Virus record (IMG/VR): IMGVR_UViG_3300010167_000860
Location: 7,964-71,963 of that record
Reading direction: 5' to 3' (one strand)
Source: a virus
DNA length: 64,000 bases
Shown: positions 1-45,459 of the stretch, in pieces
Layout of the letters: each line of letters begins with the position of its first letter
Position numbering within the stretch: the stretch's first letter is position 1
Position numbers and translations under genes: made by a program
Notes under the pieces: generated by a model
Database searches by the model: none
Told to the model about the DNA's origin: nothing
Seen by the model: the letters and a program-made list of their open reading frames with translations, nothing else

Positions 1-945
1 TAAAGAAGCTGTATTACCTTCAGTTCAGTTAGATTGAACAGGTGTTACAATATTATTGATTGCTGTATTAACATCCACTACTCATTCTAATAATGTTGAG
101 TATGCACCAGGAATATCACCTGTAATATCTTCAACACTATGCTCATGTATAGGTATAGATCCAAAAGTATAACTTGTTGCTCCAGTTGCCTGTAAAATAT
201 GTCCTGCTGTTAATCCTGATACTGTATGATAACCTCCTATTAAAGGATGGTTTTCCATACCCACTCCTGGACCTCCTGAATCTAAATTAATAGTAGCAGG
301 TCCAGATTGGTTTAATGTAAAACTGCCTTTAGGAACACCTCCTTGATTTATAGTTATAGTTGGATTATATACAGTAGGTATAGTGTTTAAAGCAGTCTGT
401 AATCCTGTAATATCAGATATACCTAAGGTATGCGTATGATTACCTGCTGCTGCCTGATTAGCATTACTACCTATCTGTATAATACCTGCTAATGATGTGC
501 TTGCAGTAGGGATACCTGTTATAGAACTTCAGGATATTACTCCTCCATTCCCTGTACTGTGGTTATGGTTTAATAACCAATTATCTAAACTTACTCCTGA
601 AAAGGTCATATTTGCAGGAGCTATATTTATATTAGCAGATAATGACAAACCATTAACTGTTCTTGTCAAAGGAACAAAATCCCCTGATACACCCCCTGTT
701 ACCTGTACTCATTGTCCTCCTCCTGCTGTACCCTGTCTTCCATAAGTATTTCCATCATTAGGAGGTTCTTCAAAAGCCATTACTTCAGTACTAAGGGGCA
801 TCCATTTACCTTTCCTTCATTCTTTTCAGGTAAAAGGATCTGTATTAATATCTACTCATATATTTGCTTCACTTAATGAAGGGGCTACATTAGAAAAGAG
901 TATATTACCCTTTTCAGTAGATATTCTTGATAAAACATTATTCAT
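1..945 (-). CDS. Tail fibre / tail-spike-like structural protein (partial, runs off window start; TGA=Trp)
   Basis: ATG at 945; frame open to position 1 if TGA=W (7 in-frame TGA, 2 TGG). Fibre-type motifs EPPNDGNTYGRQ...W, ISWSSITGIP, HTHTLGISDITGL, VQSNWTEG. Contains track ORF 82..264. Confidence 0.75.
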
Positions 946-12166: not shown

Positions 12167-12238
12167 CGGGCTTACAAGGCTATGCTCCCTGGACTTTAGT
12201 TTTGAAGACTAATATATTTCTGATTATACTATAAACCC
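12167..12238 (-). tRNA. Opal suppressor tRNA-Trp (anticodon UCA), non-canonical D and T loops
   Basis: GGGTTTA-TA-GTAT-AATCAGAA-ATAT-A-TTAGT-CT[TCA]AA-ACTAA-AGTC-CAGGG-AGCATAG-CCTTG-TAAGCCC-G: 7/4/5/5-bp stems, 72 nt, U33, A37, G73 discriminator; CCA not encoded. Confidence 0.85.
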
Positions 12239-12894: not shown

Positions 12895-12963
12895 AAAGGA
12901 TGGCAGGATATAAACCTGCAATCTCCTGATAAAATCCAGGGCTTTAATTTAAGCTACATCCCT
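12895..12963 (-). tRNA. Degenerate tRNA-like cloverleaf (pseudo-tRNA; anticodon not assignable)
   Basis: AGGGATG/CATCCTT acceptor, GCTT/AAGC D-stem, CCTGG/TCAGG stem with a 6-nt loop ATTTTA, GCAGG/CCTGC T-stem with loop TTTATAT. Confidence 0.55.
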
Positions 12964-12976
12964 TACTACAAAAAAA

Positions 12977-13413: not shown

Positions 13414-13452
13414 GCCTTCTTAGCTCAGCGGTAGAGCAGCTCACTCGTAATG
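13414..13452 (+). tRNA. Truncated tRNA-Thr(CGT), positions 1-40 only
   Basis: GCCTTCT-TA-GCTC-AGCGGTA-GAGC-A-GCTCA-CT[CGT]AA-TG, then unrelated A-rich sequence; no T arm or 3' acceptor strand. Confidence 0.85.
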
Positions 13453-13552: not shown

Positions 13553-14761
13553 ATGAGTACATCTGTTTCTATAGTATGTTATAAGTCAAAAATATTATCT
13601 AGCGGGAAACATCCCCTAATGTTGAGAATTATAAAAAACAGAAAGCCTAAGTACAAAAATTTAGGCATTTATGTATATCCTGATGAATGGGATTTTAAAA
13701 AGAATAAGCCTAAACTAAAATGTCCTAATAGGGAGGCTATACTTAATATTATACGTCAGAAAGAAACAGAAATACAAAGTGAAATAATTGAATTAAATAC
13801 TATAAATAAAGAATATACACCACAATCATTACTAAGCCCTAATAAAAAAGTTACTATAAAAACAGTTGAGGAATTATTTGAAAAAACTATAACACAATTA
13901 AAAGAAGAGAATAGGTTAAACTATGCAAGAATATTTAAACATACTAAAGGCTCAATAAAAAAATTCTGTAATAATAATCTAGATTTCTTATTTCCCAGTA
14001 TAGATGTTGAATGGCTTAGTAAATATGAACTGTGGTTAAGAAAAAACAACTGTAATGAAGTTACTATAGCCACAGTCTTTAGGATACTAAGAAGAATGTA
14101 TAATATAGCAATAACTGAAAAATGTGCTGCAAAAGATAGTTATCCTTTTAATGAATTTAAAATATCTAAATTTGATATTACAACTGAGAAAAGAGCTATT
14201 CCTAAAGAAGCTATAAAGAAAATAATAGAAACAGATGTAGAAGAAAAAGACCACTATACAAAACTTAGTAAAGACCTGTTTATATTTAGTTATCTATGTG
14301 GGGGTATAAATTATACAGACATTGCTCATCTAAAACAAAGTAACCTTGTAGATGGAAAATTAAAGTATATAAGAAAAAAAACAGGTAAGAAAATCAATAT
14401 ACCCCTATCTAATGAAACACTGGTTATTATTAACAAATATCTTACAGAGGATAATGCTTTTATTTTCCCTATATTACACAGTAAAATTCATTTAACAGAG
14501 TTACAAAAATTTAACAGACTGCATAAAGTATTAGCTAAAATAAATAATTCATTAAGAAAAGTGTCTGAACTAGCAGAAATAAAAGGAAATATAACAACCT
14601 ATGTAGCCAGACATTCCTTTGCTACAATATTAAAAAACTCAGGTGTAAATATTGCCCTTATAAGTGAAACATTAGGACACTCTGATTTAAAAACTACTCA
14701 AATATATCTTGATAGTTTTGAAAGTAGTCAGATAGGAGAAGCATTTAAAAATCTATTATAA
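13553..14761 (+). CDS. int: Tyrosine recombinase / integrase, Bacteroidetes three-domain type (arm-binding, SAM-like, catalytic)
   Basis: MSTSVSIVCYKSK...HPLMLRI arm-binding N-terminus; RKKT, YVARHSFAT, LGHS, TQIYL catalytic motifs; box I reads GGINYTD. Confidence 0.92.
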   Translation: MSTSVSIVCYKSKILSSGKHPLMLRIIKNRKPKYKNLGIYVYPDEWDFKKNKPKLKCPNREAILNIIRQKETEIQSEIIELNTINKEYTPQSLLSPNKKVTIKTVEELFEKTITQLKEENRLNYARIFKHTKGSIKKFCNNNLDFLFPSIDVEWLSKYELWLRKNNCNEVTIATVFRILRRMYNIAITEKCAAKDSYPFNEFKISKFDITTEKRAIPKEAIKKIIETDVEEKDHYTKLSKDLFIFSYLCGGINYTDIAHLKQSNLVDGKLKYIRKKTGKKINIPLSNETLVIINKYLTEDNAFIFPILHSKIHLTELQKFNRLHKVLAKINNSLRKVSELAEIKGNITTYVARHSFATILKNSGVNIALISETLGHSDLKTTQIYLDSFESSQIGEAFKNLL

Positions 14762-17324: not shown

Positions 17325-17385
17325 AAGCAAATAAAAGCAAATTATACCTTTAATTTTTTAGTTATTAGCAAGTAAAATACTTTTG
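17325..17385 (+). promoter_or_regulatory. Composite promoter: AAGCAAATAAAAGCAA + N37 + TACTTTTG
   Basis: Identical motif and spacing at 22575-22635. Confidence 0.65.
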
Positions 17386-20729: not shown

Positions 20730-20807
20730 TTACCTCTTCTTATTTCTGCATATAATAAGCATATATGCAACTATAAGGACTAATACCAATGTTATTGTTA
20801 TTCACAT
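20730..20807 (-). CDS. 25-aa single-TM peptide M-[TGA]-ITITLVLVLIVAYMLIICRNKKR (type I toxin / holin-like)
   Basis: ATG 20807, TGA at codon 2, TAA 20730; upstream TACTTTTG box at 20866-20873 on -. Confidence 0.55.
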
Positions 20808-20994
20808 AGGGAAAAGTTTAAATTAATACTATACCTGCTTGTTAGAAATTTCGCAGGATTAAGTACAAAAGTAAATAACATAGGTAAAAGTATATAAGGT
20901 AAGAGAAAGTTATAACTATAAATAACTTTCTTTTACTTTTTTAATATAATATTATTTGTAATTTTGTAGTTTATAATTTGTAAACAGAAACCTT

Positions 20995-21150
20995 ATGAAA
21001 AAGAAATATAAAGTAGTAATATATATATTTATAAGTATTATTTTAGCAATACTTATTTGCAGTTTAATTATTAGCCTTATTGGAATTAGAGATCCAATAA
21101 ATTATAGAGAAATTATGAAGGAAAACACTAATTTAATATTTTCACAGTAA
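20995..21150 (+). CDS. Small membrane protein (51 aa)
   Basis: MKKKYKVVIYIFISIILAILICSLIISLIGIRDP...; TAATTTTG box at 20959-20966. Confidence 0.5.
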   Translation: MKKKYKVVIYIFISIILAILICSLIISLIGIRDPINYREIMKENTNLIFSQ

Positions 21151-21735
21151 TCCTCCAAAATTATAATTTTCTTGGGCATTTTTAGGTCTTGTTTTTAGAT
21201 AATGAGAATTATTTTCATTACTAAAAGCTTCTTTTTCAAAAGGATTATTTCAGTACCATTTATTTTTTTCAGTCTTATTTCCAAAAATAGGATAGCCTTT
21301 CAAATATCTTAGATGATAAAATGGAAAATTATCTTTATGCTGAGCATGATGAATTAATTCATGTGTAATAGTAGAACTGTCTTTAGGATCAGCAATAGAT
21401 ATTTTTGATAAATTAGGGTGAATACCTCTATAACTTCCTAGATATCCCTTATTTAACATAGAAGGGTTTATTGTAAGTTTGCTGGTATTGAAATTTGATG
21501 TATAACTTGGTAAAAGGATATTATCTCTTATTTCTTTATCTCTTTTATACATATTATAATTATCAGCAGAATAATTATAAACTTTAGTTGATACAGCTGG
21601 AGGGGTTAATCTTTGTAACTCTTGATTCATAAAATAACTTAATGAATAATTTTTTGGGTTATTATAAGCAAATCCAATTAAATTATTGTTATTTCCCTTA
21701 CTTCAAGGGTTAAGTTTCAAATATTGTTCTTCCAT
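21133..21735 (-). CDS. HExxH metallopeptidase-like protein (200 aa; TGA=Trp)
   Basis: THELIHHAQH; read-through of TGA 21250 restores Y-W-NNPFEKEAFSNENNSHYLKTR, typical of the distal Glu motif of such proteins; ATG 21735; TATATTTG box at 21755-21762. Confidence 0.72.
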
Positions 21736-22207: not shown

Positions 22208-22486
22208 TTAACCTCTCTTTATATACCATTTCTCAAGTAAAAGGTTTATATCACTGTTTTTATAGTAATATATGCCTTTTAATTGGGTATAAGGAATAAT
22301 ATTTTCCTTCCTGTAAGTTTGTAAAGTTCTTGGGGATATTTTTAATTTCCTCATAACTTCAAAACTATCTATCCAATCTTCTTTATAAGGTTGGATATTT
22401 TCTAATATTTTATTTAGCAGTTCTTCAATAGAACCTAATTTGCTTAGGATATTTATATCCTCATCTAAACTTTTTTTGTATCACAC
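22208..22486 (-). CDS. HTH_17/MerR-like excisionase (RDF)-type protein, 92 aa; start requires TGA read-through or a -1 slip
   Basis: EDWIDSFEVMRKLKISPRTLQTYRKENIIPYTQLKGIYYYKNSDINLLL matches the Bacteroides Xis-like HTH pattern; frame begins GTG-TGA; absent from track. Confidence 0.75.
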
Positions 22487-22564
22487 ATAATGCAAAACTT
22501 TATATATTAAGAATGTAAAGATAAAAGTATTATATTGTATTATTCAAAATATTTAAGGATAGAG

Positions 22565-22635
22565 AAGCAAAATCAAGCAAATAAAAGCAATAGATACTGT
22601 AAATTTGGAGCATTATAGTATGCACTATACTTTTG
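22565..22635 (+). promoter_or_regulatory. Composite promoter with three AAGCAA repeats at 10-bp period, -33 TTTG and -7 TACTTTTG
   Basis: AAGCAA at 22565, 22575 and 22585; TTTG 22604-22607; TACTTTTG 22628-22635; lies between divergent xis-like and helicase genes. Confidence 0.65.
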
Positions 22636-22669
22636 CCCCATCAATTTTATTGATAATAAATATTAATAA

Positions 22670-23926
22670 ATGAAAGCAACAAATTTTAGAGATGAAACAT
22701 TAAAAAATGTATTAAATCTTGCTGAAGAAAACTCTGTTATTTTCCTGAATATGGCTACTGGGAGTGGTAAATCTAAACTTGCCCTGGCTATAGCTGAAAG
22801 TTTAATAACTGAAGAACCTATAATGTATAGTAATGGAGAAATGTCAAGAGATTTACAAGTTATATATCCTAAGATACTTGTAATTATTGCAGAAAGGGCG
22901 CATCAAAGGAATTGGTGGGATGAATTTAATAAACATAACTATGGAATGTTATTACAGAATACTACCTTTACTTGTTATGCTTCCCTACATAAGTTTAGAA
23001 ACACTGGATGGGATATAATAATTGTTGATGAAAGTCATCACCTCTCAGAGCTTAGATTAGGGCATTTATCTACTCTTAGGTTTAATAAGGCAGTATTTTT
23101 ATCAGCTACTATGAAAAAAGCTGTAAAAGCCTGTATAGAATATACATTCAGAGATAAAAAAACTTGTACTTATAAAGTATCCTTAGATGATGCTATAACA
23201 GCTGATATTTTACCTGAACCTAAGATATTTATTCATAAACTTACTTTAAATAATACCTATAGAGATTTAACAATTGAAACAGGTAATAAAAAAAGTAATA
23301 AAACTATTGAATGTAAATATCCTGAAAGATGGGCATATATTAAGATGTACAGTAAAACAGCAAAGATTATTATTAAATGTACAGAACAGGAAAAGTATAA
23401 TTACTTGACTGATCAGGTAGATTATCTTAAAAGGAGATTTATGGCTGACCCTTCAAATATATTTGCTAAAAATAAATGGTTAAGGACAGCCTTAGATAGA
23501 AAAATATTCCTTGGTAAATTAAAGACAGATTATGCTAAGGTTATTATTAACAAAGAGAAAGATAAAAGGCTTATTTGCTTCTGTACAGATATAGAACAGG
23601 CTAATTTATTAGGGGGTAAAGATAATATTGTACATAGTAAAATTAAAGATGTAGAGAAGGTTATAATTAACTTTCAACTGAAAAGTATAAATAGATTATA
23701 CTGTGTAAATATGCTTACTGAAGGAATGAACTTAAATAGTTTGGATGTTGGGATTATAGTCCAATTGGACTCAGAAGAATTAAAAATAATCCAAAAATTG
23801 GGGAGATTATTACGCAGTGATAGTCCAAAGGTTCATATTACAGTTTATTTAAATACTAGGGATAGTGAGTATTTGGATAAAGTTTTAGAAACTATTGATA
23901 ATAAATATATTAAATTTATAGAATAA
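22670..23926 (+). CDS. Superfamily 2 (DExH) helicase
   Basis: ATGSGKS Walker A, IIVDESHH, FLSAT, MLTEGMN, QKLGRLLR. Confidence 0.9.
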   Translation: MKATNFRDETLKNVLNLAEENSVIFLNMATGSGKSKLALAIAESLITEEPIMYSNGEMSRDLQVIYPKILVIIAERAHQRNWWDEFNKHNYGMLLQNTTFTCYASLHKFRNTGWDIIIVDESHHLSELRLGHLSTLRFNKAVFLSATMKKAVKACIEYTFRDKKTCTYKVSLDDAITADILPEPKIFIHKLTLNNTYRDLTIETGNKKSNKTIECKYPERWAYIKMYSKTAKIIIKCTEQEKYNYLTDQVDYLKRRFMADPSNIFAKNKWLRTALDRKIFLGKLKTDYAKVIINKEKDKRLICFCTDIEQANLLGGKDNIVHSKIKDVEKVIINFQLKSINRLYCVNMLTEGMNLNSLDVGIIVQLDSEELKIIQKLGRLLRSDSPKVHITVYLNTRDSEYLDKVLETIDNKYIKFIE

Positions 23927-44868: not shown

Positions 44869-45459
44869 ATGATTGATAAATTGAAGAAAAGAGGAAGACT
44901 TTTAGACAGGGCAACAGATATACTTACAGGTTCATTGGTTATAGTTGCAATAATGCTTATTTTTTCAACAGCATCAAATAAAAATAGTGTAGATAACCTT
45001 AAATATGACACTCAAAGGCTAAAAATGGATGTTCTAAAGTTTCAAAGAGAAATAGATAGTTTACAGAAAAGAATATTATTTCTTGAGAGTGTAGATTATT
45101 TTAAGGTAAATCTTGAAAAGGAATGGAGTTTAGCTAAAATTGCCCTAGCTATTGTTGAAAGTAATCTTGATAAAACAGCAATAAATCCTACTTCAGGAGC
45201 TTCAGGAATATATCAGATAATGCCTATATTTCTGAAAGAGGTAAACAGGTTACAAAAGGCTGTAATATATACTCCAGAGTGTGTATTTGATATTAAAAAA
45301 TCCTCTGAAATGGTGGAAATTATAAATTTTCACAGAAATCCTGAAAAATCTATAGAAAGATTAGCCTATCTACATAATCCAACAGAAAGGCAAGGATGGT
45401 ATTTAAATAGGGTAAAAAATACTTATGAAACATTAAAATTAATATGTTATAATGACTAA
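44869..45459 (+). CDS. Membrane-anchored lytic transglycosylase (SLT-like)
   Basis: N-terminal TM helix, coiled coil, IVESN...AIN...GASGIYQI. Confidence 0.8.
   Translation: MIDKLKKRGRLLDRATDILTGSLVIVAIMLIFSTASNKNSVDNLKYDTQRLKMDVLKFQREIDSLQKRILFLESVDYFKVNLEKEWSLAKIALAIVESNLDKTAINPTSGASGIYQIMPIFLKEVNRLQKAVIYTPECVFDIKKSSEMVEIINFHRNPEKSIERLAYLHNPTERQGWYLNRVKNTYETLKLICYND

Follow-up and report, generated by a model that had tools for sequence, protein, structure and literature searches.

The window analysed in this work is a 64,000-nt stretch of DNA covering bases 7964-71963 of a 105,836-bp IMG/VR record (92% complete, 28% GC), and its source is a crAss-like temperate phage from termite gut. The phage is present in termite-gut metagenomes of two studies, and homologues of the helicase encoded near the locus are found on many contigs of ~100 kb. 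On the minus strand, an HTH_17 frame of ~92 aa occupies 22208-22495 and is interrupted by a TGA at 22481-22483. It reads TTG (22495) CAT TAT GTG (22486) TGA TAC AAA AAA AGT TTA GAT and continues to a TAA at 22210-22208, the GTG at 22486-22484 directly preceding the TGA. One base out of phase, the same strand reads ATG (22488) TGT GAT ACA AAA AAA GTT TAG. In this register the ATG (22486-22488), which we propose as the true start, opens the 0 frame; the A7 run at 22471-22477 forms an A_AAA_AAA slippery heptamer and is the proposed slip site; and the TAG at 22465-22467 closes a 7-aa peptide, MCDTKKV. The -1 frame body (AGT TTA GAT ... TAA, 22208-22471) encodes an N-terminal helix followed by the HTH_17 winged helix. 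The shifted translation of the gene is 93 aa long, and the slip product is predicted to begin MCDTKKSLDEDI... (MCDTKKSL...). The initial annotation had described the GTG-TGA opening of the HTH_17 frame, the out-of-frame ATG with its A7 run, and a sequence box upstream, and all of these were found in the DNA. The box, TATCTTTA, lies at 22523-22516, 27 nt 5' of ATG 22488. The promoter box TATCTTTAC (22515-22523, minus strand) resembles the consensus TAnnTTTG, which we take to be the Bacteroidota -7 box.

The HTH_17 gene is divergent from the early (replication) operon. TTGCTT repeats with a 10-bp period lie between the two promoters at 22565-22590 (minus strand) and are probable regulator or -33-type sites. 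Tandem pairs of TTGCTT occur just twice in the 105.8-kb genome, here and at ~17325-17345. The table 11 ORF list shows a sole ORF at the locus, a 48-aa tail from ATG 22354, and no canonical start is found in the HTH frame between the TGA at 22481-22483 and the methionine of that tail (Met48). ATG is the start codon in 77 of 87 genes of this phage, and Shine-Dalgarno sites give no signal among its genes. When the three candidate starts were scored with a start-context position weight matrix, ATG 22488 was the best (0.88, with A at -3), followed by the TTG (-0.11) and by GTG 22486, whose score of -6.15 falls in the lowest 1% of real starts. Runs of at least seven A are frequent (84 in the genome, both strands), and A7 alone is ordinary here; an ATG lies 7-10 nt upstream of the run in only 7 of the 84. 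A genome-wide search for other clean -1 A-run junctions gave none that was convincing.

Residues 43-89 of the long frame match PF12728 (HTH_17) at 30.7 bits, above the cut-off of 27, and the frame also matches a PHROG 'excisionase' family at 8.7e-6. It is not a member of NCBIfam Xis_Gifsy_1 (17.7 bits, cut-off 60). An exhaustive HMMER search returned 1137 relatives, most of them 90-100 aa long, with alignments that begin near residue 15 of the long frame. The AlphaFold2 model computed with 76 homologues has a pLDDT of 91 and shows a helix at residues 3-34 and a winged helix at 41-90. Judged from the homologues and the model, the residues ahead of Met48 are part of the coding sequence; initiation at Met48 would truncate the winged-helix domain, and therefore the protein must begin near 22486-22495. 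A sequence search of the PDB detected no relative among solved structures. The best Foldseek matches to the model were BldC, RacA, a putative excisionase and GlnR, with TM-scores to target of 0.5-0.84 at E-values of only 0.04-0.2. As in BldC (6ama) and the putative excisionase 2kvv, the C-terminal 50 residues form a strand, two helices, a beta-hairpin wing and a helix, and superposition of this domain on BldC gives an rmsd of 1.2-1.9 Å and a TM-score of ~0.8 normalised to the target. Unlike Xis/MerR-like proteins, the window protein carries an additional N-terminal helix of 35 residues, which is typical of the Bacteroidota subfamily.

The gene belongs to a module with the elements of site-specific integration. 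A tyrosine integrase of the Bacteroidota type (Arm-DNA-bind_5, Phage_int_SAM_5 and Phage_integrase domains; PHROG integrase) is encoded at 13553-14761 on the plus strand, free of in-frame TGA and convergent with the HTH_17 gene. It lies 7.4 kb away, or 7.4-8.9 kb over its whole length, in agreement with the ~9 kb given originally. An attP core at 13414-13452 (plus strand) is identical to the 5' half of a Bacteroidota tRNA-Thr(CGT); its first 37 nt are found exactly in 6 Bacteroidota MAGs, some of them from termite gut, and blastn identity extends over 39 nt in four. The tRNA-Thr(CGT) loci of these MAGs read well in the standard code. In one of them, a termite-gut Marinilabiliaceae MAG (L072), the match reaches 8 nt upstream of the tRNA (48 columns, 98% identical), and by sequence this match points to a host of that kind using the standard code. 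Among the homologue loci in IMG/VR, 60 of 61 have a tyrosine-integrase match within 4 kb, a linkage affected by sampling bias as the records are mostly integrated elements. We recognised no other DNA-binding protein in the lysogeny module. Family and model thus support the assignment of the gene product as an Xis-like DNA-binding factor of the lysogeny module. From the family, the fold and the integrase association of the homologues we infer a role as recombination directionality factor in excision. A switch regulator would be equally at home in this divergent position; the TTGCTT repeats adjoining the gene do not recur at attP.

Scanning JGI metagenome contigs with an alignment built from the nearest homologues yielded three full-length homologous genes, on the low-GC termite-gut contigs L077, L078 and L079. 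Their proteins are 46-49% identical to that of the window, and those of L077 and L078 are 64% identical to each other. The alignment of the four loci (A4) revealed a common 5' layout consisting of TTGCTT repeats, the TATCTTTAC box, a TTAATATATAAAATTTT leader, ATTATGT and CAAAAAAA, the last of which is invariant across the window, L077, L078 and L079. The TATCTTTAC box is kept in all four, with one base off in L078, and stands 26-32 nt before the ATG. The ATG itself is found in 4/4 loci. It is followed by a short reading that differs from locus to locus: ATG TGT GAT ACA AAA AAA GTT TAG in the window (8-nt spacer, A7), ATG TCG TAT AAT CAA AAA AAA TTG ACA TAG in L077 (10 nt, A8), ATG TTA GAT TCC CAA AAA AAT TGA TAG in L078 (10 nt, A7) and ATG TTA GAG CAA AAA AAA TAG in L079 (7 nt, A8). 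The 0-frame products are therefore 6-9 aa long across the loci, and the 0-frame stop comes 0-2 codons past the run in L077-L079. Despite the indels, the HTH ORF lies in the -1 frame of the ATG in all four loci with the shared leader. One extra A yields products of 93, 95, 92 and 97 aa in the window, L077, L078 and L079, which is the family's normal size, and the four proteins become similar precisely from the Lys-Lys encoded by the run onward. The A runs are 7-8 nt long and never shorter. The slippery heptamer is A_AAA_AAA in the window, L077 and L079 and A_AAA_AAT in L078; its phase is automatic once an ORF reads AAA AAA in the -1 frame, and is weak evidence alone.

Nearly all members of the wider family start at an in-frame ATG at the same position, and the alternative in-frame starts are different at every one of the four loci. 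In these sequences, only an ATG start with a subsequent -1 slip serves all four loci, which share ancestry in the 5' region and so are not fully independent; the tree inside the clade is unresolved and gives no order for gains and losses of the layout. Two other clade members, L089 and L090, start normally, in frame; L090 retains the upstream TTGCTT repeats, which are also conserved 5' of the homologues L077-L079. The gene-caller versions of the protein across the family are 48, 73, 76, 84 and 103 aa long, and two further proteins (P0013 and P0277) resemble, at the protein level only, read-through translations of the shared promoter and leader, and are at that level consistent with the two-frame arrangement. 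Neither the protein nor the neighbouring helicase retrieved a close relative from IMG/VR, and a scan of the same database with a further alignment (A1) gave distant homologues only, with ordinary starts. The phage relatives found through the helicase (L068-L070) are without the divergent HTH gene and so did not enter the comparison. On L077, positions 3-200 (minus strand) encode a relative of the window gene at 44869-45459 (59% identical), and this contig is therefore probably a piece of a related phage genome in which the genes are ordered differently.

The shared layout can be explained in more than one way, and the interrupting TGA brings in the genetic code of the phage. Translation could start at TTG 22495 (or GTG 22486) with the TGA read as Trp by a phage tRNA(UCA), so that MHYVWYKK... 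is made only once the suppressor is expressed and both the A7 and the ATG are incidental. Much in the genome agrees with such a scheme. Minus-strand genes are rich in in-frame TGA, with 21 in one ORF of 3382 aa. The 35 genes of the plus-strand block 22670-48359 are free of internal TGA, and five of them use it as their stop. TGG makes up 1.27% of codons in the early block, and TGG (0.49%) plus TGA (0.73%) make up 1.22% in the minus-strand genes; this codon arithmetic indicates that TGA is Trp in the minus-strand late genes, where it accounts for ~60% of Trp codons at every position. An opal-suppressor tRNA gene with anticodon UCA and discriminator G73 is present at 12167-12238 (minus strand; Infernal, 46.6 bits). 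The neighbouring minus-strand gene at 21133-21735 holds three in-frame TGAs, and a public gene call is exactly the 95-aa TTG product. The scheme is also in line with a published suggestion that recoding keeps the lysogeny and lytic programmes apart (10.1101/2021.08.26.457843). It is the comparison of the loci that speaks against it: the codon aligned to the window TGA is TAA in L077 and AGA in L078 and L079, where that frame is without a usable start. In L077 the HTH frame has this TAA directly before TCA AAA AAA ATT, which rules out both read-through and an upstream start in that frame, and therefore opal read-through cannot be the shared solution. The L079 gene ends at TGA, which implies that this type of gene is read with TGA as stop. 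Furthermore, non-ATG starts are rare in the phage, the GTG has a context seldom seen in real starts, and TGA is not significantly enriched near gene starts (permutation P = 0.20), the same value on which we rejected an early first TGA serving as a gate as a general design. We therefore regard expression gated by the code switch as unlikely for this gene. Of the mechanisms put forward in the initial annotation, frameshifting gains from the retention of the ATG, the A7/A8 run and the -1 ORF in 4/4 loci, and the tie to opal read-through and the code switch loses by the TAA or AGA at the aligned codon.

Several observations concern the code of this phage more generally. The tRNA(UCA) has an odd T loop and lies directly upstream of the first late gene. 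Default ARAGORN reported zero tRNAs in the window or the whole record, and tRNA(UCA) appears with relaxed thresholds only; a host using code 4 or 25 had been considered and was dropped once Infernal detected both this tRNA and a second one. Five early plus-strand genes between 28454 and 43747 end in TGA with a TAA or TAG 1-3 codons further on, twice as TGATAA, and this doubling fits genes that need termination before and after the suppressor is made. The gene at 21133-21735 encodes 200 aa with a HELIHH motif and a weak PHROG 'protease' match, and is a recoded gene within an otherwise standard-code lysogeny module, two genes from the Xis-like gene. At 20733-20810 (minus strand) a reading ATG TGA ATA ACA ... 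would give, if TGA is Trp, a 25-aa hydrophobic peptide with a basic tail; it has the string TATGTGA in common with the start region of the Xis-like gene.

The second tRNA-like gene, at 12895-12964 (minus strand; Infernal, 40 bits), has a six-base anticodon loop A-U-UUU-A on a 5-bp stem. Relaxed ARAGORN labels it 'tRNA-?(Lys|Lys)(tt)', and the loop is like that of tRNA-Lys. Phage tRNAs with non-standard anticodon loops are known, without a shown role. It is conceivable, and in our view quite improbable, that this gene supplies a dedicated tRNA promoting -1 frameshifts on A-runs, such that the Xis-like protein is made only when the tRNA is expressed. If true, the frameshift tRNA would be the counterpart to the opal-suppressor code switch of the late genes of the same phage.

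A homopolymer placed a few codons past the start is the classical layout of a contingency gene, and the conserved ATG and run would be accounted for equally well by phase variation of the DNA. The length of the run would then shift by slipped-strand mispairing, only A8 (or A9 in the A8 loci) would make the protein, and excision or switching would be stochastic; that run length varies by lineage (7, 8, 7, 8) suits this reading. However, all four lineages are in the OFF register, as are both loci for which two assemblies exist, and the consensus contigs yielded no locus that combines the shared leader with an ON register. Tracts of A7-A8 are moreover short for efficient DNA slippage. The assembly evidence bears also on the concern that the window carries an A8 misassembled as A7. 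Logan contigs from a termite-gut run of another study are identical to the window over 22456-23732, A7 included, so that at the level of consensus contigs neither the A7 nor the TGA is an assembly error. The source run (X1) has no long piece covering the A7 site. In X2/X3 the Logan contigs break at the A-run (22456-22476), with two contigs overlapping by 21 nt at a depth of 4-7; this break is most likely a coverage gap from low depth, not a bubble, and a minor length variant is possible. In L091, a separate Logan assembly from a public run, the L077 sequence recurs unchanged, A8 included. The OFF register is thus stable for the window in X2/X3 and for L077 in L091, at the consensus level, where minor alleles are invisible. 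Taken together we find phase variation improbable. It is also possible in principle that no full-length protein is made, the product being a shorter one from an ATA or ATC past the run or from Met48, or the gene being a decaying remnant. A canonical start is indeed absent between the TGA and Met48, and some clade members are naturally 70-76 aa. A start at Met48, however, would strip the winged-helix domain of its first strand and most of its first helix, and ahead of Met48 the frame runs for 44 codons without a stop in DNA of 28% GC, with similarity to the N-terminal helices of the homologues. A remnant would hardly remain an intact ORF in four of four lineages at 46-64% identity, and we consider both forms of this explanation very unlikely.

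We favor expression that depends on a slip: initiation would be at ATG 22488, and the 93-aa protein would result from either a programmed -1 ribosomal slip or a transcriptional slip that adds one A. Based on the conserved layout we assign this reading a probability of about 0.6. Transcription would begin a few bases past the TATCTTTAC box, and ribosomes would initiate at ATG 22488 and read M-C-D-T-K-K. At A_AAA_AAA (22477-22471) most of them would hold the frame and stop at the TAG, releasing the 7-aa peptide. A minority would reach the -1 frame and make the 93-aa protein, either when two Lys-tRNAs slip back by one base or, alternatively, when RNA polymerase has inserted one extra A into the run. 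The TGA at 22481-22483 is then probably never decoded, its bases being read as part of TGT GAT. The 93-aa protein would most likely bind DNA as an excision or lysogeny-switch factor of the integrating phage, and the slip would keep its level low. The sequences show the layout and its conservation; the slipping itself, its mechanism and its efficiency are inferred. Since three related genes keep the layout, the slip looks like a deliberate throttle, not an error. As for stimulatory elements, a 6-bp hairpin 9 nt past the run is no better than shuffled sequence (z = -0.98) and RNAalifold on the four loci returned zero consensus pairs; the hairpin, neither significant nor conserved, was rejected as a frameshift stimulator. 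With no conserved or significant RNA structure after the run, a classical stimulated -1 site is not demonstrated. Runs of A7-A8 are at the short end for efficient transcriptional slippage, and productive sites of that kind are mostly 8-9 nt or longer.

Recoding that limits a factor controlling the excision of an integrated element has been described before. In ICEMlSymR7A of Mesorhizobium, according to the account of Ramsay et al. given in PMC5009743, a +1 ribosomal frameshift joins msi172 and msi171 into FseA, which activates the excisionase gene, and the recoding dampens spurious excision. FseA has its +1 shift near the end of the first ORF, and it is an activator unrelated to HTH_17 that acts upstream of the directionality factor. 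In the window gene the shift would be -1 (or +1 A), would occur six codons past the start, and would affect the Xis-like gene of a Bacteroidota phage directly. A -1 frameshift is seen in the phage A2 cro gene when it is decoded in E. coli (PMC5009743). Classical examples of -1 or slippage sites are the A-runs of IS elements and dnaX, A_AAA_AAG or A_AAA_AAA (PMC5009743), with which the window site has in common the slippery motif and the combination of a short 0-frame product with a minority trans-frame product. At those sites two sizeable ORFs are connected, and the slip is usually aided by a hairpin downstream or a Shine-Dalgarno-like stimulator upstream, whereas here the 0-frame product is 6-9 aa and a conserved structure was not found. 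Borges et al. (10.1101/2021.08.26.457843) proposed recoding as a partition between lysis and lysogeny, with integrases free of recoded stops. The present phage is alike in that its integrase and early genes lack in-frame TGA, its late genes are recoded and it encodes a suppressor tRNA. In the text of that article the word 'excision' occurs 0 times and excision genes are not discussed; for the HTH_17 gene described here, the comparison points to frameshifting and not to a recoded TGA.

These results carry a warning for the annotation of stop-codon-recoded phages, in which an in-frame TGA invites the reading of a recoded codon; for this gene family, gene callers arrived at five different wrong N-termini. 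From the promoter box to the stop the element is compact (~45 nt) and may be usable for studies of frameshifting or slippage in Bacteroidota, which to our knowledge translate without Shine-Dalgarno guidance and for which we know of few natural recoding sites. The crAss-like phages are for the most part still considered non-integrating. Should the slip prove real, a temperate member of this group would be limiting an excisionase-type gene through recoding at that gene's own sixth codon.
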